59,564 nucleotides of DNA from Clostridia bacterium (GTDB taxonomy: Bacteria; Bacillota; Clostridia; Oscillospirales; CAG-272), in assembly GCA_017532425.1 (NCBI GenBank), contig JAFXJH010000047.1, positions 1 through 59,564 on the forward strand, in the 5' to 3' direction. The notes beneath the pieces were generated by a model that saw only the letters and a list, made by a program, of their open reading frames with translations, made no database searches and was not told where the DNA came from. Position 1 is the first letter of the stretch. Every line of letters begins with the position of its first letter. Positions 4,060-50,378 of the stretch are shown in pieces. The position numbers and the translations under genes were made by a program.

Positions 4060-4450
4060 GAAAAGTTTTTGGAAAGGTGTCGGAAAACCTTTTTAAAAGT
4101 TTCTTGGAACTTCAAAAACTTTACTAAAAATAAGTTTCTTCTTTTCTCTTTTAAGCAAAGTTTTTGGGAAGGTGTCGGAAACCCTTTTTTCAAAAAGGGC
4201 ACAAAAACGTTAATTCAGCAGTAATAAAAAAACGAATCACAAAACAAAAAATTATATTTTACCCTTTTAGTAAAGTTTTTGGAAAGGTGTCGGAAACCCT
4301 TTTTTAAAAGTTTCTTGGAACTTCAAAAACCTTACTAAAAATAAGTTTCTTCTTTTCTCTTTTAAGCAAAGTTTTTGGGAAGGTGTCGGAAACCCTTTTT
4401 TCAAAAAGGGTTTCTGACGAAAGGTTTTCTGACGAAAGGTTTCTGACGAA
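4060..4450. repeat. Cluster of AAAGTTTTTG-tagged palindromic repeats; ~138-bp unit duplicated; (TTTCTGACGAAAGG)x3
   Basis: 4062-4199 is nearly identical to 4272-4410; AACCCTTTTTTCAAAAAGGGTT hairpins. Confidence 0.9.
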
Positions 4451-4502
4451 AAAAGCGTGACACCCTAAAATAAGAGTATCACGCCAAAATAATGTTTTTT
4501 GA

Positions 4503-5468
4503 TTATCTTTCTTCTCTGAAGTAGGAAAGTCCGAGAGCCGCAGGCGGCTGATTTTCCTTCTTATCACGTATGCTCGTAACTATAAGCACGATTATCGTTA
4601 CCACATAGGGAAGCATCTTGAGAAGGGGTACCGTTTCCATCTTCTGAAGGAAGGAAAGCGGTATAATGATCGGAATAAACGCACCTGCTATGAAGAGCGC
4701 ACCGAATACTATCGAGCCAAAAATACTGATATGAGGTCTCCAGAGCGCGAATATAACGAGCGCGATAGCAAGCCATCCGAGCGCCTCTACGCTGAGATAA
4801 GCTTCCTGCGAGCCGGCATAGTCCATAACGTAGCAGAGTCCGCCGAGACCTGCGATTCCGCTTCCTATGCAGGTTGCCACGTACTTATATGCCGTAACGT
4901 TTATACCAACCGCGTCCGCTGTAGCGGGGTTTTCTCCAACTGCGCGGAGATTAAGTCCTACCTTTGTGCGGAAGAGCACCCATGACGCTATAAGAGCTAT
5001 TATAATAGCAAGGAATACCATAACGCCGCAATATTTAAGTGCATTGTCCTGCGATGCAAAGGGAAAACGGAAGGCTTTGAGCGCTCTGAGGTAAGGAATA
5101 GCGTTTCCGTCTCTGAGGTCAAATATTATGAACTTCATAACGCCTACGCCGAACGTAGTAAGAGCAAGTCCTGTAACGTTCTGATTTGCGTGCAGAGTTA
5201 CTGCAAGGAAGCTGTATATAAGTCCCATAAGAGCCGCGCCCACAAACGACGCGAGTATGCCTATCACAACGAGGAAAAATCCGTTCGTCATACCTGCCAT
5301 TATCGTGTGATGGAGAGCAAAGCATCCGCTTGCCGCGCCTACGCACATAATTCCGGGTATACCGAGGTTGAGGTGTCCTGCTTTTTCAGTGATTATTTCA
5401 CCTGTAGAACCGTAAAGAAAGGTCATTCCAAGTGCCAATGCACTCAGCAAATATTCAAAAATTATCAT
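4503..5468 (-). CDS. Nucleoside/purine ABC transporter permease
   Basis: Hydrophobic; EKAGHLNLGIPG and GLNLRAVGENPATADAVGINV; follows BMP lipoprotein and ATPase. Confidence 0.9.
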   Translation of the reverse strand: MIIFEYLLSALALGMTFLYGSTGEIITEKAGHLNLGIPGIMCVGAASGCFALHHTIMAGMTNGFFLVVIGILASFVGAALMGLIYSFLAVTLHANQNVTGLALTTFGVGVMKFIIFDLRDGNAIPYLRALKAFRFPFASQDNALKYCGVMVFLAIIIALIASWVLFRTKVGLNLRAVGENPATADAVGINVTAYKYVATCIGSGIAGLGGLCYVMDYAGSQEAYLSVEALGWLAIALVIFALWRPHISIFGSIVFGALFIAGAFIPIIIPLSFLQKMETVPLLKMLPYVVTIIVLIVTSIRDKKENQPPAALGLSYFREER

Positions 5469-6556
5469 TATTTTACCTCCCTTTTACGGAATATTATCTT
5501 GTAGTTGATGAAGAATTCGCATCCTATAATGAAGAAAAGAACGATACCCGTAACGATACTCGGGAAAGCATCGTTGATGTTGAATACTGTTACTATTCTG
5601 TCTGCACCGTTTTCAAGGAAAACGATAAGAAGAGATGTGAGTATCATAGTAAACGGATTGAACTTTCCGAGCCAGGATACCATAATAGCTGTAAATCCGA
5701 GACCGCCCGCACTTGCTGTCGTTACCGAGTGGTCAAGCGCGCCAACTATCAGAAATCCCGCAAGTCCGCAAAGCGCACCCGAAACTATCATTGTTCTGAT
5801 AATAACCTTTTTTACGTTGATTCCGATATATTTTGCCGTATTTTCACTTTCACCGACGACTGCTATCTCGTAGCCGTGCTTGCTGTACTTAAGATAAATA
5901 TACATAGCAACCGTAAGAAGAAGCACGATGATTATGAGAAGAAGGTATTCGTTATTCATCAGCTTGGGCAGATGACCTTCGTTGAGCATACCGAGTGTGC
6001 TCGAACCGCTCGGAGTCCATTTGAGAAGATAGTATGCAACGAGATTTGTCGCAACGTAGTTCATCATAAGGGTGAAAAGTGTTTCGTTTGTATTCCACTT
6101 TGCCTTGAAGAGCGCGGGAATCAGAGCCCAGAGCGCACTTGCAACCAAAGCCGCAACGAGCATAATGATCAAAAGCAGCCAGTTCGGAAGCCCTTTTCCG
6201 AGGTAGTATATACAAGCAACACTTGCAAGACATCCGATAAGTGTCTGTCCCTCTGCACCGATATTCCAAAAGCGCATCTTAAACGCAGGAGTAACAGCAA
6301 GTGAGATACAAAGAAGAAGCGCAAGGTCTTTAGCAAGCTTCCATATTCTTCTCTGTGTACCGAACGCACCCTCGAAGAGAGTGAGGTAAAGCTTCAGCGG
6401 ATTTGCTCCGATAAGAAGATATGACATAAGTCCGCTGAAAAGAAGGGCTGCAACGATCGCAATAACACGGACAAGAATTGCTTTCTGCCATGACATTGAG
6501 TCGCGTCTGATAACACGAGCAAAAGGCTCTTTGATATGCTTTTCCGCCTTATTCAT
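5468..6556 (-). CDS. Nucleoside/purine ABC transporter permease
   Basis: FWNIGAEGQ and GYEIAVVGESENTAKYIGIN motifs. Confidence 0.9.
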   Translation of the reverse strand: MNKAEKHIKEPFARVIRRDSMSWQKAILVRVIAIVAALLFSGLMSYLLIGANPLKLYLTLFEGAFGTQRRIWKLAKDLALLLCISLAVTPAFKMRFWNIGAEGQTLIGCLASVACIYYLGKGLPNWLLLIIMLVAALVASALWALIPALFKAKWNTNETLFTLMMNYVATNLVAYYLLKWTPSGSSTLGMLNEGHLPKLMNNEYLLLIIIVLLLTVAMYIYLKYSKHGYEIAVVGESENTAKYIGINVKKVIIRTMIVSGALCGLAGFLIVGALDHSVTTASAGGLGFTAIMVSWLGKFNPFTMILTSLLIVFLENGADRIVTVFNINDAFPSIVTGIVLFFIIGCEFFINYKIIFRKREVK

Positions 6557-11176: not shown

Positions 11177-11185
11177 TCGGATACA

Positions 11186-14245: not shown

Positions 14246-14308
14246 ATAATATCACAAGATAATATATTTGTCAAGACTCTTGCATAAGTGAAAAGTATTT
14301 GATATAAT
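14246..14308. promoter_or_regulatory. Back-to-back divergent sigma-A promoters
   Basis: Minus: TTGACA-N17-TATTAT (14274-14246); plus: TTGCAT-N17-TATAAT (14280-14308). Confidence 0.6.
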
Positions 14309-15877: not shown

Positions 15878-15882
15878 TATAC

Positions 15883-15995
15883 AAGTAAATTACCTTAAAA
15901 GGAGATAAGCGTGAAAGTTTATTTTGAGCGCTTCAAAATTCAAACCTGTTTCACGCTTAATTTACTTAAAAGGCTGAACGCCTTTTAAGTAAATT
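15883..15995. repeat. Nested inverted repeats between prmC and ddl
   Basis: Perfect 16-bp stem 15959-15974/15980-15995; 11-bp stem 15906-15916/15949-15959. Confidence 0.75.
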
Positions 15996-16044
15996 CATCC
16001 ACTATTTATGCAGCTGTCCATAGGACAGCGGAATGGAGATTAAT

Positions 16045-20520: not shown

Positions 20521-21279
20521 TTAAAGTCTCATACTTATTCCCTTGTCCGCGAGATATTTCTTCAGCTCGGGAATTTTTATCTGTCCGAAGTGGAAAACAG
20601 ACGCTGCAAGCCCTGCATCGACCTTCGGAAGCGTTTCAAAGAGTGTCGCAAAGTCCTCTTTCGAGCCTGCTCCGCCCGATGCGATAACCGGCACGCTGAC
20701 AGCCTCGCAGACTGCGTTCAGCATTTCGATATCAAATCCGCCCTTGACGCCGTCTGTATCTATCGAATTTACTACGATCTCGCCCGCGCCGAGCTCAACT
20801 CCGCGCTTTATCCAGGAGATCGCCTCGATTCCCGTGTTTTCCCTTCCGCCTTTAGCAAAAACGCGGAAGACTCCGTCCACTCTTTTTATATCGACCGAAA
20901 GCACCACGCACTGGCTTCCGTATTTCTCTGCGCCCTCTTTTATGAGCATCGGGTTTCTTATCGCGCCCGAATTCACGCTGACCTTATCCGCTCCGCATTT
21001 GAGCACGCGGTCGAAGTCTGCAAGTGTATTTATTCCTCCGCCGACTGTCAGCGGTATGAATACCTTTCTCGCCGTTTCGCAGAGAATATCCGTGAAAAGT
21101 GCGCGTCCCTCCGCTGATGCCGTTATATCGTAGAAAACGAGCTCATCCGCTCCGTTTTCACTATAAAACTGCGCGAGCTCAACCGGCGAAGACACGTCCG
21201 AAAGTCCGAGAAAATTTACTCCCTTTACCACTCTTCCGTCCCTTACGTCAAGGCACGGTATTATTCTTTTTGTTATCAT
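20521..21279 (-). CDS. hisF: IGP synthase cyclase subunit
   Basis: [28 protein letters not shown]. Confidence 0.96.
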
Positions 21280-21304
21280 AATTATATATTATATTCCTTT
21301 CTCA

Positions 21305-21471
21305 GAACCCTTTTTGAAAAAAGGGTTCCGAACCTCCCAAAAACTTTTCTAAAAGGGGAATAATAATTTATTAGCAAAGTTTTTGAAGGAGTGCAGAGGA
21401 AACTTTTTTCAAAAAGTTTCCTTTGCGCAGGCAGAGCCCTTGGTGGGGTTCTCAGGGGCAAAGCCCCTGAG
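21305..21471. repeat. Inverted doublet of the palindromic repeat family plus triloop hairpin overlapping the hisA stop
   Basis: GAACCCTTTTTGAAAAAAGGGTTC..CAAAAACTTTT / AAAGTTTTTG..GGAAACTTTTTTCAAAAAGTTTCC; CTCAGGGGC-AAA-GCCCCTGAG. Confidence 0.9.
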
Positions 21472-22171
21472 CAATAGCTTCCGAGAGCTTGATAGCGCCT
21501 GTGTAATAAGCCTTGCCGATTATTGCGCCATAGACGTCCATTTTGCGAAGCGCGATAACGTCGTCAAGCGAGGAAACGCCGCCCGAAGCGATTATGTTCA
21601 TATCGTATTTTTGTGAAAGCGATCTGTAAAGCTCGAGATTTGTGCCGCGCATAGCACCGTCGCGTGAGATATCGGTGCAAATAATTGTTTTTACTCCGAT
21701 ATTCTGCATTTTTTCAAAAAAATCGTCGCTTTTGACACCGCTCTTTTCGACCCAACCCTTGACGGCGATCTCACCGTCCTTGATGTCTGCGCCGACCGCG
21801 ATCTTGTCGCCGTATTTTTCTACTGCACGCTCAACAAAGCCTTCGCTTGAAACCGCCGCCGTGCCGAGAATAACTCGTCCGACACCGACGGAGAGATATT
21901 TCTCAATAGTCTCCATATCGCGTATTCCGCCGCCGATCTCAACGAAAAGATCGGTCGCATTCACTATCTGCTTTACCGTTTCGAAATTCGGAGTATTTCC
22001 GTCGCGCGCGCCCTCAAGATCGACCATATGGATATGAGTCGCGCCCTCCTCTACAAATTTTTTTGCCGTATTTATGGGATTTTCATCATAAACCGTGAGC
22101 TTTGCGTAGTCACCCTTATAAAGGCGCACAGCCTTGCCCTCGTACAGATCTATTGCGGGAAAAATTATCAT
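21452..22171 (-). CDS. hisA: ProFAR isomerase
   Basis: IFPAIDL, HMVDLEGA, GGGIR, TDISRDG. Confidence 0.96.
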   Translation of the reverse strand: MIIFPAIDLYEGKAVRLYKGDYAKLTVYDENPINTAKKFVEEGATHIHMVDLEGARDGNTPNFETVKQIVNATDLFVEIGGGIRDMETIEKYLSVGVGRVILGTAAVSSEGFVERAVEKYGDKIAVGADIKDGEIAVKGWVEKSGVKSDDFFEKMQNIGVKTIICTDISRDGAMRGTNLELYRSLSQKYDMNIIASGGVSSLDDVIALRKMDVYGAIIGKAYYTGAIKLSEAIAQGLCP

Positions 22172-22192
22172 AGCTTAGTCCTTATATACTTA

Positions 22193-22810
22193 TTAAAGCT
22201 CGGCAAACGCCTTGATTATCGAAAGTCCGACGTTACCGCTTTTTTCGGGGTGGAACTGACAGCCGTAAACGTTGCCCGATGCCACAGCGGCTGTGAGAGG
22301 TGCGCCGTACGACGTGCTTGCGATCACCGCATCCTCGCAGTCACTTGCGTAATACGAATGAACGAAATATACGCAGTCGCCCTCGTTAATATACTTAAAT
22401 ATCTCATTCTTCTCTTTATTTTCGGGGAAGATCAGCCCATTCCAGCCGATATGCGGAATCTTAAGGTCGGACGGGATCACGTCTGCTATAGGCTTAACGC
22501 TTCCTTTTATAAGTCCGAGACCCTTGTATCTGCCGAATTCGTAGCTTTCATCAAAAAGAAGCTGCATACCGAGGCAGATTCCCATAATCGGTTTGCCGTC
22601 TGCCGCGAGCTCCTTGAGAAGCTTATCAAATCCGCGCTCTGCGAGCTTTTCGGACGCATCTCTGAACGCGCCCACGCCCGGCAGAATTATTTTATCGGCG
22701 TTTCTTATTATCTTTTCGTCGTCCGTTACCACAGATTCTATACCGAGTGCGGCAAGCGAAGACCCAAGCGAAAAAAGATTTCCTACGCCGTAGTCAATTA
22801 TTGCTATCAT
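22193..22810 (-). CDS. hisH: IGP synthase glutaminase subunit
   Basis: IIDYGVGN, GICLGMQLL, QFHPEKS. Confidence 0.96.
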   Translation of the reverse strand: MIAIIDYGVGNLFSLGSSLAALGIESVVTDDEKIIRNADKIILPGVGAFRDASEKLAERGFDKLLKELAADGKPIMGICLGMQLLFDESYEFGRYKGLGLIKGSVKPIADVIPSDLKIPHIGWNGLIFPENKEKNEIFKYINEGDCVYFVHSYYASDCEDAVIASTSYGAPLTAAVASGNVYGCQFHPEKSGNVGLSIIKAFAEL

Positions 22811-23397
22811 TAAAGTACTCCCTTTGTTGAAGGTATTTCGCCCGCTCTTGCCGAGTCGATCGACACCGCCGCGCGAAGTGCCGCCGCAAATGCCTTGAAT
22901 ATTCCTTCAATAATATGGTGCGTATTCTTGCCTGCAAGCTGTCTTATATGGAGCGTCATTTCCGATCTTCTTACAAGTGCCGCAAAGAATTCCTCTACAA
23001 GCTCTGTATCAAAGTCGCCCACCTTTTCTGCAAGACCTTCTGTATTATACGCAAGTGTTGCTCTGCCCGAAAGGTCTATCGACACAAGCAGGAGCGCTTC
23101 ATCCATCGGAATTATCGCGTTTCCGTAGCGCGCGATTCCCATTTTGTTGCCCAAAGCTTCCTTTATCGCGTCGCCAAGGCAGATTCCGATATCCTCTACC
23201 GTGTGATGATAGTCGACCTCTATATCGCCCTTACATCTGACGTAAAGCGAGCATCTCGAATGCTTTGCGAAAAGTGTCAGCATATGATCGAGAAACGCGC
23301 ACGACGTCTTGACGTCGCTCTCGCCCTTACCGTCAAGATCGATCTTCAGTTCAATATCTGTTTCCGCAGTCTTACGTAAAATCTCACTATTTCTCAT
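22810..23397 (-). CDS. hisB: Imidazoleglycerol-phosphate dehydratase
   Basis: FLDHML, DYHHTVED, NTHHIIE, PSTKGVL; start moved to the ATG after AAGGA. Confidence 0.96.
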   Translation of the reverse strand: MRNSEILRKTAETDIELKIDLDGKGESDVKTSCAFLDHMLTLFAKHSRCSLYVRCKGDIEVDYHHTVEDIGICLGDAIKEALGNKMGIARYGNAIIPMDEALLLVSIDLSGRATLAYNTEGLAEKVGDFDTELVEEFFAALVRRSEMTLHIRQLAGKNTHHIIEGIFKAFAAALRAAVSIDSARAGEIPSTKGVL

Positions 23398-23415
23398 TTT
23401 TATATCCTTTCTTTT

Positions 23416-23658
23416 TTTGGGGAAACTTTTTGAAAAAAGTTTCCCCAAACCCTTTCAAAAACTTTTCTGAAAAGGATTTGGATTATTTTTATAAAAAGGC
23501 TGTTTCCTCTGAATTTCTGCCAAAATTAAATTCGATTTCTTTTTGAAAAAAGTTTCCAAACCTTCCCAAAAACTTTTCTTAAAAAGAGAATAAACAAATT
23601 ATTTAGTAAAGTTTTTGAAGGAGTGCAGAGGAAACTTTTTTCAAAAAGTTTCCTTTGC
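23416..23658. repeat. Three copies of the palindromic repeat family between hisC and hisB
   Basis: Two reverse copies and one forward copy; 23608-23658 is identical to 21376-21426. Confidence 0.9.
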
Positions 23659-23666
23659 TATTACGT

Positions 23667-24725
23667 TTATTTTTTTATTATCTTCTCGGTGGCGAAGAGG
23701 AATGCATCCATTTCGGCGCGAGTGCCTATGGTTATGCGGTTGTATTTTTCAAGGCGTCCGCCCGAAAAATGTCTTATAAGAATGCCGCGCTTTTTCATTT
23801 CGCTTGCAAAATCCGAGCCCGAGATCGCCTCGTGACCTGCGAGAACGAAATTTGCCGCGGATTCAATTACCTCAAAGCCCATTTCGCGAAGCTTTGCCGT
23901 AACGTAGGTACGCGTTTCGATGATCTTCTGAGCATTGTCATCGTAATATTTGCCGTTGCGGAGTGCCGCTTCGCCCGCGATCAGAGTGAGACGGTTGATG
24001 CTGTACGGATTGGTCGAAAATTTCAGCTTGTTAAGGTCTGCGATGATCTCCTTGTCCGCAAATGCGAATCCGAGTCTCGCGCCCGCAAGGCTTCTCGATT
24101 TGGAATAGGTGCGTACAACAAGCAGATTTTTATAGCTGTTGAGCAGCTTCAGCGCGCTCTCTCCGCCGAAATCTATATACGCTTCGTCAACAAGCACCAC
24201 GCTGTCGGGATTTGCCTTCAGTATGCGCTCGATCTCGCAGAGCGGCTTGAAAATTCCGGTCGGTGCGTTCGGATTGGCGATAACTATAAGCTTGCCGTTC
24301 TCTTCGAGATAATCCTCGGTTTTTATGGTAAAATCATCACAAAGCGGCTTCTTTTCGTAATTTGCGCCGTGAAGCTTTGCATAGACCTCGTAAAACCCGT
24401 AGGTTATATCGGGGAAAACAACTCCCTTTTCGGAAAACGCCATAAAGGCGAAATTCAGTATATCGTCCGAGCCGTTTGAAACGAAGACCTCGTCGGTCTC
24501 GCGTGAATAAAACTCGCCGAGCGCCTTACGGAGTCCGCGGCAGTCGGGGTCGGAATAGAGTCGCAGGTCGGAAAGCTCTCCGTAGCCTATCGACACAAGC
24601 ACATCGGGTGACGGCGGATAGGGCGACTCGTTTGTATTAAGCTTTATGTATTTGACACCAAGAGGCTGTTCGCCCGGTGTGTACGCCGTAAGCTCGGCGT
24701 ATTTTTGGTTCATATATTTACTCAT
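23667..24725 (-). CDS. hisC: Histidinol-phosphate aminotransferase
   Basis: KLNTNESPY, NPNAPTG, DEAY, RTYSKSRSLAGARLG. Confidence 0.95.
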   Translation of the reverse strand: MSKYMNQKYAELTAYTPGEQPLGVKYIKLNTNESPYPPSPDVLVSIGYGELSDLRLYSDPDCRGLRKALGEFYSRETDEVFVSNGSDDILNFAFMAFSEKGVVFPDITYGFYEVYAKLHGANYEKKPLCDDFTIKTEDYLEENGKLIVIANPNAPTGIFKPLCEIERILKANPDSVVLVDEAYIDFGGESALKLLNSYKNLLVVRTYSKSRSLAGARLGFAFADKEIIADLNKLKFSTNPYSINRLTLIAGEAALRNGKYYDDNAQKIIETRTYVTAKLREMGFEVIESAANFVLAGHEAISGSDFASEMKKRGILIRHFSGGRLEKYNRITIGTRAEMDAFLFATEKIIKK

Positions 24726-24757
24726 AGCTATGTTTTACCTTATTCAAAACATTCATA

Positions 24758-24930
24758 CGAGAAAACTTTTTGAAAAAAGTTTTCTCGAGCTCTTTCAAAA
24801 ACCTTTCTAAAAAGTTAATTTTCCTTTTCAGTAAAGTTTTTGGAGATCCAAGAACCTTTTTTCAAAAAGGTTCTTGGTGGGTTCCAAGGGCAAAGCCCTT
24901 GGCAGGGTTCAAAGGGACGGAGTCCCTTTG
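24758..24930. repeat. Inverted doublet of the repeat family plus two triloop hairpins overlapping the hisD stop
   Basis: 24833-24903 is the reverse complement of about 49579-49648. Confidence 0.9.
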
Positions 24931-32450: not shown

Positions 32451-33370
32451 TAGTGTGCTCCTCCTATAATTTCATTTAATTTTTTTATACCGTATTTTTC
32501 CATAACTCTCGGCAGATCGTTTATAATATCTCGGCAAGCGTAAGGATTTACAAGGTTTGCCGCACCGACTTCTACCGCCGTTGCTCCTGCGAGCATCATT
32601 TCTATAACATCCTCCGCGCTCGAAACGCCGCCCATTCCGACAACCGGAATCTTAACTGCGCCCGCCACCTGATAAACCATTCTTACAGCCACGGGGAATA
32701 TAGCGCTACCCGAAAATCCACCCATTTTATTGGCGATTACCGGCTTTTTGGTGCGAAGGTCTATTCTCATTCCGAGCAGGGTGTTTATAAGGCTGATGCC
32801 GTCTGCGCCCGCTTCCTCGCACGCCTTTGCTATCGAAACGATATCCGTAACGTTAGGCGAAAGCTTAATTATGACCGGCTTTGTCGTAACTGCCTTTACC
32901 GCGCGAGTTACCTCTGCCGCCGCCTCGGGTGAAGTACCGAATGACATTCCGCCGCCGTGTACGTTAGGACAGCTTACGTTGACCTCGAGCCAGCCTACCT
33001 GCTCGCATTTATCGAGCTTTTCGCAGGTATAAACGTATTCTTCGACCGAAAATCCCGAAACGTTCGCCATTACCGGCTTATTAAAGCACTTTTTAAGCTT
33101 CGGAAGCTCCTCTGAAATAACCTTTTCGACTCCGGGATTCTGCAGACACACCGAGTTTATCATTCCCATCGGGCATTCTGCTATTCTCGGGGTAGGATTT
33201 CCGAATCTCGGCTCCTTCGTCGTACCCTTGAACGAGAAGGTACCGAGCATATTTATATCGTAAAGCTCTGCGAATTCATATCCGAAGCCGTACGTTCCGC
33301 TTGCGGGGATCACGGGATTATCGAGCTCTATACCGCAAAGAGTTACTTTAGTTTCTACTGCTTGTCCCAT
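32450..33370 (-). CDS. pyrD: Dihydroorotate dehydrogenase B, catalytic subunit
   Basis: ASGT, GNPTPRI, NVSCPNV, KLSPNVT, INTL; ATG at 33370 follows AGGAG. Confidence 0.95.
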
Positions 33371-34098
33371 AATATCTCCTCTCTGCAAAGAACGGGGCCG
33401 TCCTTGCATATGCGTTTATATCCTGTTACCGTCTTGCACGAGCATCCCATACAAGCGCCGAAGCCGCATCCCATACGCTCCTCGAAGCTGAACTGTGCCG
33501 GAGCATCTGTCGCATTATAGAGTGCCTTGAGCATTGGCTCGGGTCCGCACGAGCATATCGACGAATACTCACCGACCGTATCAAGTGCGTTTGTTACAAA
33601 TCCCTTGATTCCGCAGCTTCCGTCCACCGTCGTAACTGTAAAGCTTGCGCCTATCTTTTCAAATTCTTCTTTATAAAAGACCTCGTCTTCGCTTCCGAAT
33701 CCTGCAATGACCTTGACATTTTTACCCGCTTTTATTAGCTCCTTTGCGAGCAGGAACATCGGAGGAAGTCCTACACCGCCGCCCACAAGCAGAGGTGTAT
33801 CTCCGCATTTTGAGAGGTCATAGCCGTTTCCAAGACCTGTGAGTACATCAAGCTCCTCGCCGCCCGTCATCTCAGCCATCTTCTCCGTTCCCCTACCGAC
33901 GACCTTATATACAAGTGTCAGCGCACCGTTTTCGGCGTCGCAAACCGATATCGGTCTACGAAGATAGAAGCCGTCAAGCTGAACATTTACGAACTGACCG
34001 GGCGCTGTAATATCCGATATATCGCCCGAAAGCTTCATTTCAAACGTGTTCTTCGCGATCTTTCGATTGGAGATCACAGTAAAAATCGATTGCTTCAT
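33355..34098 (-). CDS. pyrK: Dihydroorotate dehydrogenase electron-transfer subunit
   Basis: LRRPIS, GGGVGLPP, CGPEPM, MGCGFGACMGC, CKDGPV. Confidence 0.95.
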   Translation of the reverse strand: MKQSIFTVISNRKIAKNTFEMKLSGDISDITAPGQFVNVQLDGFYLRRPISVCDAENGALTLVYKVVGRGTEKMAEMTGGEELDVLTGLGNGYDLSKCGDTPLLVGGGVGLPPMFLLAKELIKAGKNVKVIAGFGSEDEVFYKEEFEKIGASFTVTTVDGSCGIKGFVTNALDTVGEYSSICSCGPEPMLKALYNATDAPAQFSFEERMGCGFGACMGCSCKTVTGYKRICKDGPVLCREEILWDKQ

Positions 34099-34122
34099 TT
34101 TCCAAGCCTTTCTTTTTTTCGC

Positions 34123-34775
34123 GGAAACCCTTTTTGAAAAAAGGGTTTCCACACCTTCCCAAAAACTTTTCTGAAATGGAAAGGAATTTATTTTAGTTTA
34201 GATGGTTTTCTTTTTGTTCTATTTTTCCGTTTGTTCGGTTGCCCCTTTTTGTAAAAAGGGTTTCCACACCTTTCCAAAAACTTTTCTGAACTTGGAAAGA
34301 AAATTATATTTTTTATGAAGTTTTTGAAGTTATTAGAAACTTTTTTCAAAAAGTTTCTAATTGGGTTTTAGGGCAACGCCCTAAGAAAACGGTGGAGACG
34401 GTACCGTTCGTTCCACAAGATTTTTGTGCCGTTCGAACCCTGTAGAACGGACCGTCGTGGACGCCGGTCCCTACAGTTGTAATTATCTTTTCTTTTCAGT
34501 TAAGTTTTGAGATTCCAAAACGTTTTGCGTGCAAATCGTTTTAAACTTCTTTTCAAAAAGTTTCTAATTGGGTTTTAGGGCAACGCCCTAAGGAAACGTC
34601 GGATACGGTGCCGTTCGTTCCACAAGATTTTTGTGCCGTTCGAACACTGTAGAACGGACCGTCGAGGACGCCGGTCCCTACAGTTGTAATTATCTTTTCT
34701 TTACAGTTAAGTTTTTGAGATTCCAAAGAACTTTTTGAAAAAAGTTCTTTGGTGGGGTTCGGGGCAAAACCCCGA
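34123..34775. repeat. Mosaic repeat cluster: five tag+hairpin copies, a 207-bp-period duplication and two GTAG-type REPs
   Basis: About 34344-34518 matches about 34551-34726; GTAG-GGACCG..CGGTCC on the minus strand at 34474-34448 and 34681-34655. Confidence 0.9.
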
Positions 34776-40154: not shown

Positions 40155-40379
40155 TGTGCGTGTACAAAAGACGGGCACCGACATACACGGGACGTGTTGT
40201 GTATGGTCACCGTGCCTGTCAAATACATAATTCTTCGGAACTGCTTTTTTACGTATTGGTCAAGACAAAAGCTGGGGTTTTGTCTGCAAATTCGTTTAAC
40301 TTAGGCGTGTTCCGCTCTTTTTCCGTGTATAACTGTGTCTGCACGGTCTTTTCTCCTGCCCTGATACTTGTTATGCACA
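40155..40379 (+). promoter_or_regulatory. Candidate structured 5' leader RNA of rnj
   Basis: Four internal stems, a cUUCGg tetraloop and an enclosing stem. Confidence 0.5.
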
Positions 40380-40418
40380 CCCTATATTTTTATTTTAAAA
40401 TTAAAGAAAGGACAATTT

Positions 40419-42092
40419 ATGGCAAAAAAAGCTGCAAAAAAACTCAAAGTAGCCTGCCTCGGCGGTCTCGGTGAGATCGGAAAGAATCTTACCGTGCTCG
40501 AGTATGGCGATGACATGATCATAATAGACTGCGGAATGGGCTTCCCCGACGACGATATGCTCGGTGTTGACCTCGTTATTCCCGATTTTTCATATCTCAA
40601 AAAGAATGCCGACCGCATCCGCGGTGTCTTTCTCACTCACGGACATGAGGACCACATCGGCTCTATCCCCTATCTTCTCAGCGAGATCGACGTTCCGATA
40701 TACGGCACAAGACTCACGATAGGAATAATAAAATACAAGCTCGAGGAGCACAAGATCCCCTTCAAGCCCCGTCTTTTCTGCGTAGAAGCGGGCGACGTTA
40801 TCGAAGCGGGCGAAATGTTCGTTGAATTTATACATGTAAACCACTCTATTGCCGACGCCTGCGCGCTCGCAATATTCACCCCTCTCGGAACTGTTATCCA
40901 TACAGGCGACTTCAAGCTCGACCTCACTCCCATTGACGGCGAGGTAATGGACCTCACGCGCTTCGGAGAGCTCGGAAAAGAGGGAGTCCTCCTTCTTATG
41001 TGCGAGTCGACTAACGCCGAGCGACCGGGATTCACCCCCTCCGAGAAGACCGTCGGCGAATCTCTCAAGTCTATATTTATGCGCCACCCGAAAAAACGCA
41101 TAGTTATCACCACTTTTTCGTCAAACGTTCACCGCGTACAGCAGATAATCGATATCAGCGTCGCTCACAAGCGCAAGGTGGCCGTTATCGGAAGAAGTAT
41201 GCAGAACATAGTCAGTGCCGCCATCGAGCTCGGATATATGCACGTTCCCGAAGGCGCTATAATCGATATCGGTGACATCAAAAACTACAATCCCGAGAAC
41301 GTGACCGTTATCACCACGGGAAGCCAGGGCGAGCCTATGTCCGCTCTCTACCGTATGGCATTTTCCGACCACGCGAAGTTAAATCTCGGAAACGACGATC
41401 TTGTCGTTATCAGCGCAAATCCGATTCCCGGAAACGAAAAGCTCGTTGACAGACTCATAAATGAGTTTACTAAGAACAACGTCACCGTTTTCCGCGATTC
41501 TTCTGTTGAGATCCACGTTTCGGGTCACGCTTGCCAGGGCGAGCTGAAGCTTCTTCAAGCTCTTGTCAAGCCGAAATATTTTATGCCCGTACACGGCGAG
41601 CACAAGCATCTTGCCGCCAACCGCGACCTTGCAAAATCCATGGGCCAGGATGCCTCCACAATATTTATCGGAGAAAACGGCAAGGTTCTCGAAATATCGT
41701 CGAAAAGCGCAAAATTCAACGGAACAGTCCCCGGCGGAGTGCTCTTCGTTGACGGCTCGGGAGTCGGCGACGTCGGAAACATCGTTCTCCGCGACAGAAA
41801 GCATCTTTCCGAGGAAGGAATCATCGTGGTCGTTGCTTCCGTTTCTCTTGACGAAGGGCTTCTTATGTCCGGACCCGAGATCATCACCCGCGGATTTGTC
41901 TATATGCGCGAATCGGAAGAGCTTATAGCCGAGCTTCGCCGCATTGCATACGAATCGATATACGACGGACTCGACAGCGATTACATCGATTGGGCACAGC
42001 TCAAAAATATGATCAAGGACGATCTTGCGCGTTATATTTATTCCAAGACCAAGCGCCGCCCTATGATCCTTCCTATAATTTTAGATGTTTAA
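40419..42092 (+). CDS. rnj: Ribonuclease J
   Basis: LGGLGEIGKN, THGHEDHIG, HTGDFK, TGSQGEP, HVSGHA, PVHGE. Confidence 0.97.
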   Translation: MAKKAAKKLKVACLGGLGEIGKNLTVLEYGDDMIIIDCGMGFPDDDMLGVDLVIPDFSYLKKNADRIRGVFLTHGHEDHIGSIPYLLSEIDVPIYGTRLTIGIIKYKLEEHKIPFKPRLFCVEAGDVIEAGEMFVEFIHVNHSIADACALAIFTPLGTVIHTGDFKLDLTPIDGEVMDLTRFGELGKEGVLLLMCESTNAERPGFTPSEKTVGESLKSIFMRHPKKRIVITTFSSNVHRVQQIIDISVAHKRKVAVIGRSMQNIVSAAIELGYMHVPEGAIIDIGDIKNYNPENVTVITTGSQGEPMSALYRMAFSDHAKLNLGNDDLVVISANPIPGNEKLVDRLINEFTKNNVTVFRDSSVEIHVSGHACQGELKLLQALVKPKYFMPVHGEHKHLAANRDLAKSMGQDASTIFIGENGKVLEISSKSAKFNGTVPGGVLFVDGSGVGDVGNIVLRDRKHLSEEGIIVVVASVSLDEGLLMSGPEIITRGFVYMRESEELIAELRRIAYESIYDGLDSDYIDWAQLKNMIKDDLARYIYSKTKRRPMILPIILDV

Positions 42093-42131: not shown

Positions 42132-42139
42132 ATTTTGTT

Positions 42140-42652
42140 TCTTTTCAGTAAAGTTTTTGGGATTCCAAAACGATTTGCAAGCAAATCGTTTTACCCTTCT
42201 TTTCAAAAAGGGTTTAAGCAGGATCCAAGGACAGCGTCCTTGGCAGGGTTTCCAAAGGGACAGAGTCCCTTTAACGAGTTTCGCGCTTTAAGGCACGCGC
42301 GACTCAAGGGCTCCGCCCTTAAGAATCCCGCGAGCTTTTGAAAAAGCTCGACCAAAACTTTTCTAAAACAAGTTTTCCTTTTTCAGTAAAGTTTTTGGGA
42401 TTCCAAAACGATTTGCAAGCAAATCGTTTTACCCTTCTTTTCAAAAAGGGTTTAAGCAGGATCCAAGGACAAAACCGACACTTCGTGTCGTTTAGCAGTT
42501 TCGCTTGCACACAGCCGTGTGCATTTTGCTGACGCAAAACCGCAAACTGTACCCTTCGACTGTTATTTTTTTCTTTTCAGTAAAGTTTTTGAAGTTCTTA
42601 GAAACTTTTTACAAAAAGTTTCTAAGCGGGATCCAAGGGCAGAGTCCTTGGC
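42140..42652. repeat. Mosaic repeat cluster with a 238-bp-period composite unit
   Basis: Copies start at 42150 and 42388; largely the reverse complement of 49650-50010. Confidence 0.9.
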
Positions 42653-46632: not shown

Positions 46633-46663
46633 AGTATTATACCTCATAAAAATATAAATATCC

Positions 46664-47053
46664 GAAACCGAGCCTGTAAGCCGGGTTCTGTCCGGGTCGG
46701 CGGAAATTTTGCCGACCTCGAGCTGTCATCTATCTTGTCCGTACGTTGCCGTACGGCTCTGTGCCACCTGACAAAGCATATGCCGTGCAGACATCGGCAT
46801 TTCTGCCGGTTTGCGCAGGTGTTGCACCGGATAGGGTTTACAGTGACGCACAAAGTTACCAATGTGCCGGTGAGCTCTTACCTCGCCTTTCCATCCTTAC
46901 CTTCCCGAAAACGGGCGGGCGGTTTATTTCTGTTGCACTTTCCCTGAGGTCACCCTCGGCGGACGTTATCCGTTATCCTGCACTGCGGTGCCCGGACTTT
47001 CCTCACGGTAATACCTTTCGGCGACATACCGCGCGACAGCACAGCTCGGTTCC
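46664..47053 (-). ncRNA. rnpB: RNase P RNA, bacterial type A
   Basis: GAGGAAAGUCCGGGC, GAAAGUGCAACAGAAA, GGUAAGAGCUCACC, ACAGAACCCGGCUUAC; P1 GAACCGAGC/GCUCGGUUUC. Confidence 0.95.
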
Positions 47054-47060
47054 ACCCTAC

Positions 47061-47089
47061 ATTATAACGCACGTTAGCCCTTTTGTCAA
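47061..47089 (-). promoter_or_regulatory. rnpB promoter
   Basis: Perfect TTGACA-N17-TATAAT about 7 nt upstream of the RNA 5' end. Confidence 0.85.
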
Positions 47090-47257
47090 ATACAAATTTA
47101 ACAAAAGCTCTCTTTTTTTCGTTTATTTTCCCACGTCACGGACATTTAGCAGAAAATTTGCGAAAAATACTTAAAATTGTTAATACGTTGTTCATAAGCA
47201 AGAGATAATATACGTATATAATTATATTTAATATTTATCATTCAACACGGAGACCAT

Positions 47258-48142: not shown

Positions 48143-48169
48143 TACTAAAAAACAAAACGGAGCATTCAA

Positions 48170-48682: not shown

Positions 48683-48732
48683 TTTTTTATTTCATACAGT
48701 CCAAACGAACTACAAGAATTCAAACGAAAAGG

Positions 48733-49572
48733 ATGGCAAAAGCTATGACTAATCGCAAACTTGCACTCGGAATCGGAGTCGGATATCAGGATTCCTTTGA
48801 AAACACGGTAAAGTTCACAAAATCCGCCGGATTTGACGGTTGCTTCACCGGTTGCAACCGCGACGGCTCTGATATCGCAGAAATGGCAGAGACAATCGCC
48901 AAAAACGGTCTTATCTATCAGTCTGTGCACTCTCCCTTTACAAATGTTCATCATCTTTGGGAGGAAGGCGAAGAGGGTGAGCATCAGACCGATCTTCTTA
49001 TCAGCTGTCTGAACGCCTGTCAGCGCTCCGACGTCCCGATAATGATCGTTCATCCCATAATCGGAATGGACCGACACACTCCTAACGATCTCGGCATCAA
49101 GCGTTTTGCTCGCCTTGTCGAAGCCGCAGAAAAAACAAACGTTATGCTCGCTTTTGAGAACGTAGAAAATCTCGAATATCTCGATAAGATCTTCGCCGAT
49201 CTCGGAAATTCCTCTTCTGTCGGACTCTGCTGGGACACCGGACACGAAATGTGCTACAACTTCCACACCGACATTCCCGGACGCTTTCCCGGCAAGCTTA
49301 TTGCCACTCACTTCAACGACAATCTCGGTATTACCGATCCCGCAAACGTGACCTGGCACGATGACGCGCATCTTCTCCCCACCGACGGTATCGCCGACTG
49401 GGCAGGCATTATGCGCCGCATTGAGCGCGAAAACTACAGTGGCATCATCACCTTCGAGATCACCCGCAACAACAAGCCCGACCGTCACACACACGACATC
49501 TACGACGGTCTCGATCACGAAGCCTTCATCGCCCTCGCCTACGAAAAAGCCTGCAAGGTTGTAAGTATGTAA
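48733..49572 (+). CDS. Sugar phosphate isomerase/epimerase (TIM barrel)
   Basis: VHSPF, AFEN, CWDTGH, THFNDN, DAHLLP.DG, TFE; start may be 48745. Confidence 0.82.
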   Translation: MAKAMTNRKLALGIGVGYQDSFENTVKFTKSAGFDGCFTGCNRDGSDIAEMAETIAKNGLIYQSVHSPFTNVHHLWEEGEEGEHQTDLLISCLNACQRSDVPIMIVHPIIGMDRHTPNDLGIKRFARLVEAAEKTNVMLAFENVENLEYLDKIFADLGNSSSVGLCWDTGHEMCYNFHTDIPGRFPGKLIATHFNDNLGITDPANVTWHDDAHLLPTDGIADWAGIMRRIERENYSGIITFEITRNNKPDRHTHDIYDGLDHEAFIALAYEKACKVVSM

Positions 49573-49578
49573 GGGAAC

Positions 49579-50378
49579 GCCAAGGGCTTTGCCCTTGGAA
49601 CCCACCAAGAACCTTTTTGAAAAAAGGTTCTTGGATCTCCAAAAACTTACTGAAAAGGGAAAACTTGTTTTAGAAAAGTTTTGGTCGAGCTTTTTTAAAA
49701 GCTCGCGGGATCCTTAAGGGCGGAGCCCTTGAGTCGCGCGTGCCTTAAAGCGCGAAACTTGTCAAAGGGACTCTGTCCCTTTGGAAACCCTGCCAAGGAC
49801 GCTGTCCTTGGAACCTGGTTAAAACCTTTTTGAAAAAAGGGTTTAAGAATCCCAAAAACTTTACTGAAAAAGGGAAAACTTGTTTTAGAAAAGTTTTGGT
49901 CGAGCTTTTTCAAAAGCTCGCGGGTTTCTTAAGGGCGGAGCCCTTGAGTCGCGCGTGCCCTAAAGCGCGAAACTCGCCAAAGGGACTCTGTCCTTGGATT
50001 CCCAAAAACTTACTGAAAGGAAAAAAGAATTTCATTTTCTCTGTGTTAGCGCAGCACAAAATTTCACCCATAAAACTAACGATACTGCCCGCCGCGTTTC
50101 GCCGCGGCGCGAGCAAAACCGACCTGCCTCTTGGGAGGTTTTGCGGAAAGAGGGTTGGGTGCTCTTAGGGAAGGGATACTTCCCTTCCCAGAAGCCGTTC
50201 TTTGCTTCATTTCTGTCGGCACAGAAATGAAGAGAAAACCTTATAAACGCGTCTTCTGTGTGTTCGCACAGAACAAAACCCTTCGTGCATCAGGGACTTA
50301 CTTTTCTTAGGGCTTTGCCCTAAAACCCATTTAAGAAACTTTTTGAAAAAAGTTTCTTAAAAATCTTCAAAAACTTCG
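49579..50378. repeat. Mosaic repeat cluster: tandem ~215-bp composites, extra hairpins and a terminal tag+hairpin copy
   Basis: Units start near 49651 and 49865; reverse complement of the 42.2-kb and 24.8-kb copies. Confidence 0.9.

Follow-up and report, generated by a model that had tools for sequence, protein, structure and literature searches.

Is the hairpin repeat that recurs between the genes of this Clostridia contig a mobile element of the REP kind, and does a recognisable enzyme move it? The window, that is, the whole stretch of 59,564 nucleotides analysed, carries the repeat in seven intergenic clusters, for which the initial annotation had proposed a REP-like family with a different tag, mobilised in trans. 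The explanation that we favour overall, with moderate confidence, is that the repeat is non-coding, modular and palindromic, belongs to the REP/BIME type, with a behaviour like that of the REP repeats of E. coli, and is specific to a single family of gut Clostridia; with this goes a proposed spread at the DNA level. The first half of the annotation thus stood: the repeat is an abundant, extragenic, structure-conserved tag-plus-hairpin unit, and it is indeed differently tagged. It lacks a GTAG-type foot tag, and we call it REP/BIME-like and not REP in the strict sense. New here are its family-wide range, the complementarity of tag and hairpin tip, the excess of G.T over A.C on the tag strand, and the fixation of most sites within the genus.

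Architecture and copy number of the repeat

The basic module is a non-coding sequence of about 60 nt, in which a head (yTTTTCAGw) is followed by the tag AAAGTTTTTG, a purine-rich linker of 4–8 nt and a variable stem of 9–12 bp round the core TTTTTTCAAAAA; the hairpin tip (T6-C-A5) is constant, and the stem varies between copies yet remains paired. The linker is shorter than the roughly 10 nt first annotated, and the conserved stretch begins, with the head, about 12 nt before the tag at which the unit had been taken to start. Where two different loci could be aligned at ≥90% (288 pairs), the left border of the module fell 6–15 nt 5′ of the tag in 215 pairs and the right border 40–59 nt past the tag start, approximately at the hairpin foot, in 201. 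The tag lay upstream of the core in 103 cases, the core was flipped in 11 and three were counted both ways; 62 distinct 10-nt arms were found among 113 hairpins. Modules occur singly, fused to others such as GC-rich hairpins, or, as for many units, as inverted head-to-head pairs with a three-hairpin fold, an example of which is the dimer at 24754–24881 (z −6.1/−8.1). No GT[AG]G, CGTC or CnGA tetranucleotide was found at the hairpin foot, and an alternative stem with the tag in its loop was unsupported (75.6% paired versus 73.7% in shuffles, 54/500).

The tag (≤1 mismatch) matched the window 38 times, against 9.3 ± 3.1 in shuffles, of which 0/100 reached 38, and the core (≤1 mismatch) 25 times, against 2.1 ± 1.8. 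Thirty-six of the tag matches fell inside the seven clusters (outliers at 14292 and 53041), as did 20 of the core matches, the other five being at 9844 (both strands), 21709/21710 and 27200. In the window, a covariance model trained on 68 units gave 45 matches at E≤1; the 22 that were full-length at E<1e-4 all lay inside the same clusters (Table 1), close to the 25 or so copies previously estimated, and all five arm pairs quoted earlier were present in the window. The genome-wide count by covariance model that had been suggested as a check gave at least 149 matches (150 of 2776 candidates scored) in the source genome (G000), a 2.4-Mb draft of 144 contigs that is 85% complete. This genome holds 198 exact tags and 157 exact cores, compared with at most 14 and 5 for permuted words, and 178 tag-plus-core units.

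Table 1. Repeat units and adjoining signals in the window, with covariance-model (CM) scores
Position	Strand	Feature	Score and context
4008..4035	-	TTGACA-N16-TATAAT promoter-like site before gene 2729-3976(-)	outside repeat; one border of 4.06-4.45 kb cluster; flank conserved in G006
4046..4111	+	degenerate unit, core decayed to TTTTTAAAA	37.3 bits, E 1.9e-5; tag 4062-4071
4077..4138	-	degenerate inverted unit overlapping 4046-4111	36 bits; two tags round one decayed hairpin
4141..4205	+	unit, 5′ arm GTCGGAAACCC, 3′ arm truncated	45.5 bits
4256..4320	+	degenerate unit, copy 2 of ~211-nt local duplication	39.3 bits
4352..4420	+	unit, stem GTCGGAAACCC/GGGTTTCTGAC, one G.T	70.9 bits
4449..4485	-	ordinary intrinsic terminator (hairpin + T6) of permease gene 4503-5468(-)	outside repeat; other border of 4.06-4.45 kb cluster
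21298..21363	-	unit, stem TTCGGAACCC	74.4 bits; directly upstream of start of His_biosynth gene 20521-21279(-); stem identical at orthologous site in G002, G003, G004
21360..21428	+	unit pointing into 3′ end of gene 21452-22171(-)	66.8 bits; head-to-head partner of 21298..21363; followed by GC hairpin 21451-21471 containing the stop codon of that gene
23414..23481	-	unit upstream of IGPD gene start (ATG 23397)	74.2 bits
23527..23592	-	unit, 3′ arm truncated	46.9 bits
23592..23660	+	unit, stem GCAGAGGAAAC/GTTTCCTTTGC	66.8 bits; adjoins stop of aminotransferase gene 23667-24725(-)
24754..24821	-	unit upstream of gene 23667-24725(-)	68.2 bits
24817..24881	+	unit, stem CCAAGAACC	75.8 bits; 3′ of it GC hairpin CCAAGGGCAAAGCCCTTGG, then stop of histidinol dehydrogenase gene 24909-26192(-)
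34118..34185	-	unit upstream of gene 33355-34152(-)	70.4 bits
34235..34300	-	unit, local tandem copy	41 bits; 115 nt from 34118..34185
34301..34365	+	unit, stem TTAGAAAC	58.8 bits
34692..34756	+	unit, core flipped relative to tag (TTTTTGAAAAAA)	56.2 bits
42134..42198	+	long variant, extra hairpin CCAAAACGATTTGCAAGCAAATCGTTTT between tag and stem	33.7 bits
42327..42377	-	short variant CGAGC TTTTGAAAAA GCTCG, tag AAAGTTTTGG	24.8-26.7 bits, E 0.0025-0.006
42372..42436	+	long variant, copy 2	33.9 bits
42566..42630	+	unit, stem CTTAGAAAC, core TTTTTACAAAAA	70.4 bits
49601..49665	-	unit, stem CCAAGAACC	65.4 bits
49659..49709	+	short variant resembling 42327..42377	24.8-26.7 bits for the three short variants
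49814..49878	-	unit	59.9 bits
49874..49924	+	short variant resembling 42327..42377	as for 49659..49709
50327..50393	-	unit, stem CTTAAGAAAC	67.2 bits

Pairing of the stem and proposed pairing of tag with tip

Ten genomes supplied 68 distinct units, in which 96.2% of the cells of the 14-bp hairpin were paired, compared with 72.1% in shuffles (0/500) and at most 71% in slid controls, and the covariation score was 0.705 versus 0.215 in shuffles (0/500), with changes on both sides at 10 of the 14 stem pairs. Selection of the units had demanded at least six pairs adjoining the core; the outer pairs were unforced, and those of columns 40–42 were paired in 66–67 of the 68 rows. The compensating arm changes noticed earlier were thereby confirmed.

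The T-run of the tag varies together with the A-run of the tip: 150 unique units included five T4/A4, 115 T5/A5 and ten T6/A6 combinations, and the discordant ones mostly had flipped or C-mutated cores. An independent scan of other species found the runs concordant in 22 of 23 units, and in the G016 lineage the tag GGTTTTTTCGGG is accompanied by the tip TTTTTCCCAAAAAA. Because the two runs have the same length, the tag complements the hairpin tip, and covariation of run length and centre alone suggests that the two pair. Single-base tag variants (AAAGTATTTG, AAAGCTTTTG) occur with no compensation, and templated correction among neighbouring quasi-repeats could give the same tag-tip pattern without function.

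On the tag strand, G.T was found in 37 cells (27 arms) and A.C in 8 cells (8 arms), with a filter blind to either kind. Counted by distinct arms, G.T:A.C was 8:0 in sense units, 5:0 in convergent ones and 4:3 in those antisense to local genes; since the excess is clear in the first two contexts and not in the third, it does not distinguish single-stranded DNA from RNA. Taken with the tag-tip complementarity, it speaks for a single-stranded form specific to one strand, as in HUH systems, and this leaves room for a mechanism of the kind initially proposed.

In the mechanism that we put forward, the active form would be the single-stranded tag strand with its hairpin folded, and T(n)G of the tag could base-pair with C A(n), the 3′ half of the tip, a guide/target-like contact as in IS200/IS605 and REP systems. 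The unit would be read by some enzyme or host machinery other than an identifiable Y1 transposase, and the DNA-level spread and homogenisation of modules would come about through duplication, rare insertion and conversion between copies, the last anchored on the fixed tag and tip. Hairpins inside operons and after stop codons would be transcribed, where they probably act as structures that protect or process mRNA ends; such a role would account for the retention of units.

Distribution within the family and persistence within the genus

Within the family, the exact pattern (tag-N12–20-core) was found in 60 of 201 genomes and 38 of 97 genera; elsewhere in the class, 150 genomes representing over 60 families had none. 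The reversed pattern, as a control, was absent from every genome scanned. Exact matches numbered from 1 to 93 per genome, with lineage-specific stems and bursts in copy number. Across genera of 38–55% G+C only tag and tip were conserved, and the stems were genome-specific; G163, for example, has about a dozen identical copies spread over many contigs. Modular hairpin-forming intergenic repeats, often with no known enzyme, are familiar from Gram-positive bacteria (pneumococcal BOX, RUP and SPRITE, and bcr of Bacillus cereus). These are species- or genus-wide, whereas the present repeat, compared with them by description only, is family-wide with a fixed tag and tip.

Sites are long-lived within the genus, the unit being swapped or re-paired in place; G000, G006 and G007 carry different stems at the same site. 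In genus-level orthologous comparisons, the unit was kept in 22 of 28, against a unit in 1 of 118 unit-free comparisons. The search for empty sites in orthologous spacers thus yielded a mixed result: most comparisons keep the unit, and three species-level cases of gain or loss were found in the genus, without clean junctions or target duplications. The spacer 3977–4502 measures 526 nt with its units in the window and 121 nt without units in G006; a unit precedes the D-Ala-D-Ala ligase gene in G002/G005 and is absent in G003/G004. Fixation across relatives, which the initial annotation had itself named as evidence against its proposal, therefore largely holds in the genus, and the mostly fixed sites are at least as well explained by a conserved host element as by an active parasite.

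Gene context, candidate enzymes and alternative readings

By our own crude gene calls (87% coding), 169 of the 178 units are extragenic and prefer gene 3′ ends, with 40 in convergent and 6 in divergent spacers, and with 39 sense and 36 antisense units in co-directional ones. Sixteen start codons have a unit 14–34 nt upstream, and some 55 stop codons have one within about 60 nt. Units trailed by a GC hairpin lay near stops in 22 cases and near starts in 4, those with an A-rich flank near starts in 8 and near stops in 1.

This context would suit a conserved host cis-element acting in RNA as "operon punctuation", which we consider possible though doubtful. Cleavage in the AU-rich centre of a head-to-head pair between cistrons would leave the upstream mRNA with a 3′ hairpin and the downstream mRNA with one at its 5′ end, beside the ribosome site, as a shield from an RNase J-type 5′ exonuclease; the repeat would be kept by need of the cell and not by spread. 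The placing of units at starts and stops, the fit of module type to context and the tolerance of tag-strand G.T in sense units argue for it, as do the positions kept at gene identities of 70–90%, at which the AT-rich centre between the heads can no longer be aligned. An RNase J gene is present at 40368–42092, and before the ligase gene, which looks essential, the G002/G005 unit with its AAGAAAG flank replaces the GAGG ribosome site of G003/G004. A weak sign is that the RNA-library contig 21070–21333 ends at a hairpin foot, in one library and where contigs break at repeats anyway. However, neither orientation prevails in co-directional spacers, the exact pattern is absent from 59 of the 97 genera and from all other families sampled, and copy number ranges widely. 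Identical copies at many loci of single genomes indicate recent copying, no Rfam family matched, and the stem with the tag in its loop was unsupported. With a terminator on one side and a promoter on the other, the 4.06–4.45 kb cluster is probably not covered by any normal transcript.

Mobilisation in trans by a RAYT/Y1 HUH transposase would make the repeat a true REP family, the gene having been missed through incompleteness or lying on an unbinned element. We regard this as unlikely. No Pfam transposase family matched any of the 53 predicted proteins of the window, as first stated, and neither PF01797 (Y1; 9 candidates scored) nor the TnpB and IS110 families were found in the source genome. 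Y1 genes showed no association with the repeat across the family (26 of 60 genomes with it, 57 of 141 without), and half of the ten genomes with at least 20 copies had no Y1 match, namely G000 and four that are 93–97% complete. Flanking by the repeat, which had been suggested as a mark of the enzyme, was seen at 0 of 12 Y1 genes in repeat-bearing genomes (within 1–2.5 kb). Divergent Y1-like genes of 137 to 166 aa with an HUH motif do occur in some family members and speak for this reading, but the one in G130 (L021:2034-2534), a genome with 41 exact-pattern copies, is squeezed between two genes with no space for repeats. The missing enzyme weighs little, because the draft of 144 contigs is only 85% complete and repeats and insertion sequences are often unassembled; as none was found, "mobile" rests on the copy patterns and the three gains or losses.

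In its tag-plus-hairpin design, its strand asymmetry and the complementarity of tag and tip, the repeat does resemble the guide/target logic known from IS200/IS605 and REP systems (PMC6006769). The REP/BIME clusters of enterobacteria are described as substrates of TnpA-REP/RAYT and, like the present repeat, as short extragenic palindromes in hundreds of copies, with a short conserved motif 5′ of a variable-stem hairpin, found alone, in inverted pairs or in mosaics with further motifs, preferring gene 3′ ends and operon interiors, and partly kept in position between related species (PMC6006769). Unlike REPs, the present units have no GT[AG]G foot and no linked RAYT gene; their 10-nt, AT-rich tag stands 4–8 nt off the foot and complements the tip, the tip is fixed instead of the stem, and the host is a Clostridia family, not Proteobacteria. 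Pseudomonas REPINs are described as inverted REP doublets with a single-copy RAYT (PMC5581495), and share with our doublets the folding as one long structure, vertical persistence and lineage-specific sequence families; here the halves differ in stem and outer modules, and the doublet thus lacks the symmetry of a replicating pair; there is also no RAYT. At IS200/IS605 ends such as those of IS608, strand-specific hairpins have a short sequence at a set distance 5′ that base-contacts another sequence of the element as guide and target (PMC6006769), and such a contact would explain the co-variation of tag and tip. In contrast to IS608, with its guide at the hairpin foot and a tetranucleotide target, the partner here is the tip and the tag lies inside the repeated module; the source genome lacks TnpA and TnpB, and one site can hold both orientations. 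Class 3 Y1 genes are reported with atypical hairpin repeats of CnGA foot, about 600 copies in Solibacter usitatus (PMC6006769), which are likewise high-copy hairpins with non-GTAG tags outside Proteobacteria, but which flank their Y1 gene as our units do not.

It is improbable that the units are duplex DNA sites for a family-specific protein (nucleoid-associated, regulator or recombinase) reading TTTTTG half-sites, with the variable stem as passenger. Such half-sites are present as an inverted repeat, about 20 bp apart, in the tag and on the core's bottom strand. The conservation of tag and tip alone across genera would suit this, as would the identity of the tag with the core read on the bottom strand, which is the run-length covariation seen differently, and A/T tracts bend DNA. 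However, 96% pairing is not expected of a passenger stem, and the G.T over A.C asymmetry indicates a single strand. The head resembles a CodY box, but a CodY domain was not found in the genome, and just two tyrosine recombinase genes were found, neither near repeats as far as examined.

That the units are ordinary intrinsic terminators or sigma-70 promoters that look repeated is highly improbable: the preference for gene 3′ ends and convergent spacers would fit, and consensus scans pick up the unit 23625–23658 and the dimer centre 21387–21360, but the T-run lies inside and not 3′ of the hairpin, the scanned stretch has 24 terminator-like sites against 22.3 expected with one of about 11 full units flagged, a −35/−10 pair at fixed spacing fits, by reading, neither orientation, and a normal terminator and promoter stand directly beside one cluster.

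Copy number and genomic placement

Allowing at most one mismatch, we counted 38 matches to the tag AAAGTTTTTG in the window where 9.3 were expected, and 25 to the hairpin core TTTTTTCAAAAA where 2.1 were expected. The initial annotation had described an abundant repeat in seven intergenic clusters; 36 of the 38 tags and 20 of the cores lie inside these, and all the arm pairs it quoted were seen on reading them. A covariance model, R1, was built on an alignment (A1) of 68 distinct units, of which the window supplied 12 and nine other genomes 56, and recovered 22 full-length copies in the window at E<1e-4, all in the named clusters, together with weaker or partial ones. The draft genome of the window, G000 (2.38 Mb, 144 contigs, 85% complete), holds 198 exact tags and 157 exact cores, with permuted words reaching at most 14 and 5, respectively. 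It contains 178 units with both tag and core, and the genome-wide count with R1 gave at least 149 matches (150 of the 2776 candidates having been scored).

On our own crude gene calls (1986 genes, 87% coding), 169 of the 178 units in G000 are extragenic. Convergent spacers hold 40 units versus 6 in divergent ones, co-directional spacers hold 39 in sense and 36 in antisense orientation, and 48 units are flanked by a contig end on one side. Ninety-two units are directed at a gene's 3′ end (median distance 40 nt) and 55 at a start codon, 16 of them within 14–34 nt. Of the units followed by a GC-rich hairpin, 22 have a stop codon and 4 a start codon within 80 nt; of those with an A-rich 3′ flank, 8 are close to a start and one to a stop.

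In the window, units occupy three spacers of the his operon (hisD-hisC, hisC-hisB and hisA-hisF, genes assigned by Pfam) and the spacer between the pyrK-like and carB genes, and also follow several further genes. The GC-rich hairpin CTCAGGGGCAAAGCCCCTGAG of the repeat (21451-21471) overlaps the 3′ end of a His_biosynth gene (21452-22171, minus strand) and encodes its last codons and TGA stop. The cluster at 4.06-4.45 kb has a TTGACA-N16-TATAAT site on one side (4008-4035) and an ordinary terminator on the other (4449-4485), both on the minus strand; placed between a promoter-like site and a terminator, it probably lies outside normal transcripts.

The stretch is contained in 20 sequencing runs from 13 studies, and contigs from four runs (one RNA and three DNA) end at repeats. 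One RNA-library contig stops at 21333, at a hairpin foot, and the same contigs break at repeats generally. Joints at 34150>34266, 23473>23602 and 34553>34739 could reflect strains that differ in unit number, and they may also stem from other copies. Short-read assemblies are broken by the repeat, many units being located at contig ends.

Unit architecture and covariation

The initial annotation defined the unit as a tag, a linker and a hairpin. The tag and hairpin were confirmed, but the conserved module is longer and begins with a head before the tag: yTTTTCAG(T/A), the tag AAAGTTTTTG, a purine-rich linker of 4–8 nt, a stem of 9–12 bp, TTTTTTCAAAAA and the return arm. The T5/A5 runs lengthen the stem to 13–14 bp and leave a loop of 4 nt. 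Among 288 pairs of units from different loci with alignments of at least 90%, the left border of likeness falls 6–15 nt before the tag in 215, and the right border 40–59 nt past the tag start, about at the hairpin foot, in 201. Since these borders lie outside the tag, the tag is part of the repeated module and not a pre-existing target.

The compensation between arms proposed earlier is strongly supported. The 14-bp hairpin is paired in 96.2% of the cells of A1 versus 72.1% after shuffling, with a covariation score of 0.705 versus 0.215 (neither reached in 500 shuffles); slid controls gave at most 71% pairing, and both sides change in 10 of the 14 pairs. The units of A1 were preselected for at least six pairs adjoining the core, and the unforced outer pairs are still formed in 66–67 of the 68 rows, with 4–5 pair types each. 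Among 113 hairpins of G000, 62 different 10-nt arms were found, and stem positions 7–9 are paired in 97–99% versus 42–60% in shuffles. A further stem (P1), which would place the tag in a loop, was rejected (75.6% paired versus 73.7% shuffled, equalled or exceeded in 54 of 500).

The wobble pairs of the stems are asymmetric between strands. Under a count filter that treats G.T and A.C alike, the tag strand has 37 G.T cells (27 distinct arms) versus 8 A.C cells (8 arms), three of the latter arms being probably mis-registered. This excess of G.T over A.C points to folding of the tag strand as single-stranded DNA or RNA. By distinct arms, G.T:A.C is 8:0 for sense, 5:0 for convergent and 4:3 for antisense units, numbers too small to decide between RNA and single-stranded DNA.

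The T-run of the tag and the A-run of the tip also covary. In 150 unique units from G000 and the fetched loci, T4/A4 was found 5 times, T5/A5 115 times and T6/A6 10 times, every T6 tag (10 of 10) occurring with an A6 tip. T(n)G and C A(n) are exactly complementary. In 92 of these 150 units (80 of the 118 with A5), the T-run on the 5′ side of the tip is longer by one, and other lengths exist. Most discordant cells have the core flipped (9) or its C mutated (7). Other species, scanned independently, gave 22 concordant units out of 23 with a stem among the matches listed, which include T4/A4 in two further genomes and T6/A6 in three. In G016, a genome of another genus, the tip is TTTTT-CCC-AAAAAA and the tag GG-TTTTTT-C-GGG, the centre being altered on both sides too. 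No compensation was observed for single-base variants of the tag.

We read this as contact between the tag and the tip within a single strand. A protein that reads TTTTTG twice, or templated correction between neighbouring quasi-repeats, would be alternative explanations of the same covariation. A triple helix would fit the covariation in run length, but the covariation of the centre in G016 (CCC with GGG) fits Watson-Crick pairing better. As for the form of a contact between tag and tip, a complete pseudoknot is unlikely on steric grounds in units with a 4-nt linker.

The clusters combine units in both orientations with GC hairpins, inserted hairpins and modules of about 120 nt, as in BIME-like mosaics. 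Head-to-head units are common; in such doublets the two heads and tags pair with each other, and folding gives three hairpins (z −6 to −8). The core is flipped in about one in ten units (11 of 113 hairpins in G000), and 16 long variants, with the core at least 48 nt from the tag start, were found in G000. Of its 198 exact tags, 172 lead into the hairpin of the unit; the remaining 26 include five chance matches within genes, some cut by contig ends and about ten in which the head precedes a different module. Since head and tag also occur with a different module, the head is a junction piece that can be reused, and the repeat is a mosaic system. Examples and other features of the window are listed in the table.

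Coordinates of variant units and accompanying features. Positions refer to the window except for those on other G000 contigs (C-numbers), which are 0-based tag starts, minus-strand entries being counted from the reverse-complement end.
Feature	Location	Strand	Remarks
Long-variant unit	42134-42198		A further, perfect hairpin (CCAAAACGATTTGCAAGCAAATCGTTTT) separates tag and stem
Long-variant unit	42372-42436		A further, perfect hairpin (CCAAAACGATTTGCAAGCAAATCGTTTT) separates tag and stem
Head and tag on a different module	C5:22637; C70:11211; C72:7508; C77:33669		Module contains …CCCCTCTCACCTGCTTCGCAGGAGCT…
207-nt tandem duplication	34337-34727		1.9 copies, 94% matches; between pyrK-like and carB genes; each copy contains a unit together with a GC hairpin and a GC-rich, roughly 120-nt module
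RNase P RNA, bacterial class A	46661-47052	-	254.8 bits
RES-domain protein, then DUF2971 protein	487-2461		Possibly a toxin-type pair, unrelated to the repeat
39-nt tandem repeat	53336-53430		2.1-2.4 copies; inside biotin-carrier gene 53110-53514; probably encodes an Ala/Pro-rich linker

Class membership and search for a mobilising enzyme

In the passage of PMC6006769 that defines them, REPs carry GT[AG]G 0–2 nt from the hairpin foot. Neither GT[AG]G nor any other fixed tetranucleotide is present 0–2 nt 5′ of the foot in A1; the preceding bases are GAAGT, GGAGA, GGAAGGGT and others, and the fixed 10-nt tag ends 4–8 nt from the foot. As in REPs, the element is a short, extragenic palindrome of high copy number, with a 14-bp hairpin, 169 of 178 units extragenic and at least 149 model matches. 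A search of the genome gave no RAYT/Y1 gene flanked by the repeats at up to about 1 kb. The element is therefore REP-like in several respects and fails strict REP membership.

The initial annotation had inferred mobilisation in trans and named REPs as substrates of HUH enzymes of the RAYT/TnpA(REP) type. Its statement that the window has no transposase holds (0 of 53 predicted proteins); mobilisation by a RAYT/Y1 enzyme is not supported. PF01797 (Y1_Tnp) has no match in G000 (85% complete). Across 201 sampled genomes of the family, 83 of which have Y1, it is present in 26 of 60 with the repeat versus 57 of 141 without. None of 12 Y1 loci from repeat-bearing genomes is flanked by the repeat within the 1–2.5 kb around each. 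Five of the ten genomes with at least 20 exact copies have no PF01797 match (G000, G003, G037, G096 and G210), these being 93–97% complete apart from G000. The weak PF01797 matches are a class of HUH proteins of 137 to 166 aa. One of these, a single-copy 166-aa HUH/Y1-like protein (…MPNHVHAII…) in genome G130 (locus L021:2034-2534), has no spacer on either side and no adjoining repeats; it looks domesticated, and its neighbours are presumably a large ATPase-like gene and a hydrolase-like gene.

TnpB (PF07282) and IS110 (PF01548) also have no match in G000. A non-autonomous element derived from IS200/IS605 would match the ends of an element with TnpA/TnpB in its genome, and is not supported in this draft, where neither PF01797 nor PF07282 has a match. 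Two tyrosine recombinase genes are present in G000. Only two of its genes are flanked by units on both sides, the aminotransferase gene 23667-24725 and one on contig C75, which we take to be a purine-synthesis gene; both look like housekeeping genes and not candidate enzymes.

Further identities were compared. A REPIN was rejected because, although the heads pair, the two hairpins of a pair differ (GGAACCC vs GCAGAGGAAAC at 21.3 kb; CGAGAAAAC vs CCAAGAACC at 24.8 kb). For a MITE, neither target duplication nor a clean junction was seen at two filled/empty comparisons between species about 20% apart, and the sole inverted repeat of the unit is its own hairpin. Intrinsic terminators do not fit, as the T-run lies inside the stem and 24 sites were found against 22.3 expected, with one unit flagged; promoters showed no enrichment and no fit. 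The head TTTTCAGAAAA resembles the CodY consensus, and a CodY box was rejected as no CodY domain was found in G000. The repeat matched no Rfam family at gathering or E-value threshold; the window yielded RNase P only, and the 13 weak Rfam matches in 21200-25000 are all far under threshold. Literature matches to the strings AAAGTTTTTG and TTTTTTCAAAAA were all unrelated among the matches listed. Within the literature searched, which also took in work on REPs of Oscillospiraceae and on repeats of Oscillospiraceae/Ruminococcaceae, no published account of the repeat was found.

Site conservation, distribution and proposed account

Syntenic regions from six species of the genus, with gene identities of 66–93%, were compared. 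The earlier proposal of a mobilised family was borne out only in part: the units are mostly kept, being present in the relative in 22 of 28 comparisons over seven unit-bearing spacers, with a few gains or losses. In 39 unit-free spacers, only one of 118 comparisons has a unit in the relative. Unit number and stems differ among species at the same site. Upstream of the His_biosynth gene 20521-21279, the stem GGAACCC is common to G000 and the more distant G002-G004, and the closer G006 and G007 have GGGAAAAC and GAAAAACC, respectively, each fully compensated; fast re-pairing, or exchange for other members of the family, is suggested.

Two spacers differ in length from those of G006: 3977-4502 is 526 nt with units in the window and 121 nt without units in G006, and 49573-50427 is 855 nt in the window, against 448 nt in G006, where a single lone tag is present. 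Before the D-Ala-D-Ala ligase gene (window spacer 15878-16032), G003 and G004 have 13 nt with a GAGG ribosome site; in G002 and G005 a unit with an AAGAAAG flank precedes the gene, the GAGG site is gone and only CAAGAAAGAAAA stands before the start codon. Several further genes led by a unit are without a GGAGG-type site. At this divergence, no clean junction or target duplication was seen at the sites of gain or loss.

The exact pattern of tag, 12–20 nt and core was found in 60 of the 201 genomes of the family and 38 of 97 genera, the reversed-pattern control giving zero in all 201, and in 0 of 150 genomes representing over 60 further families of the class. The carriers range from 38 to 55% G + C (loci read), yet the AT-rich tag and tip are kept. 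Stems are specific to the genome: in G163 about a dozen identical copies are spread over many contigs, and G173 and G210 have stems of their own. The pattern-negative G016 (loci L046-L059) has 37 weaker model matches with the variant tag GGTTTTTTCGGG and tip TTTTTCCCAAAAAA; because the exact pattern misses this variant family, 60 of 201 is a lower bound.

We conclude that this is a real, abundant repeat of the REP/BIME kind, restricted to one family and conserved in structure, which has an architecture of its own and is distinct from a strict REP. The most likely account has three parts: the module, whose tag strand would fold on itself, would be copied and converted at the DNA level; it would be retained for long at gene ends and operon junctions; and the transcribed hairpins would have a secondary role at mRNA ends. 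A more specific proposal, which we consider improbable, is that the tag is an internal guide pairing T(n)G/C A(n) with its own tip, the fold being the substrate of a family-specific, non-Y1 copying or converting activity and the module being co-opted as a portable intercistronic cassette. Such a cassette would give a 3′ hairpin to the preceding gene, and a 5′ hairpin and an A-rich ribosome site to the next, and would represent a kind of operon punctuation, mobile and function-bearing, that forms a class of its own and is new.

A good understanding of small palindromic repeats exists only for those with an attached RAYT enzyme. The present repeat is a well-delimited case in abundant, uncultured gut Clostridia, and is unusual in that tag and tip are conserved over dozens of genera, covary, and are not tracked by a Y1 enzyme; given these three properties, what copies or keeps it can be tested by phylogenetic profiling within one family. 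This analysis newly contributes a census across the family, negative tests for Y1, the conservation of sites, the covariation of tag and tip, and the asymmetry between strands. The repeat also overlaps stop codons and replaces ribosome sites, and could mislead RNA-gene searches.

A scan of public collections found at least 127 matching stretches, many of them chance single matches in unrelated phyla; among the matches listed, most public contigs are MAGs titled 'Oscillospiraceae bacterium', 'Clostridia bacterium' or 'Ruminococcus sp.'. Viral contigs gave 20 matching stretches, with about ten matches being true units, and neither enrichment nor an enzyme lead. True units were also found in a record titled Acidocella facilis and in one Thermodesulfobacteriota MAG contig (L064, L133-L135), possibly through contamination or mis-binning.
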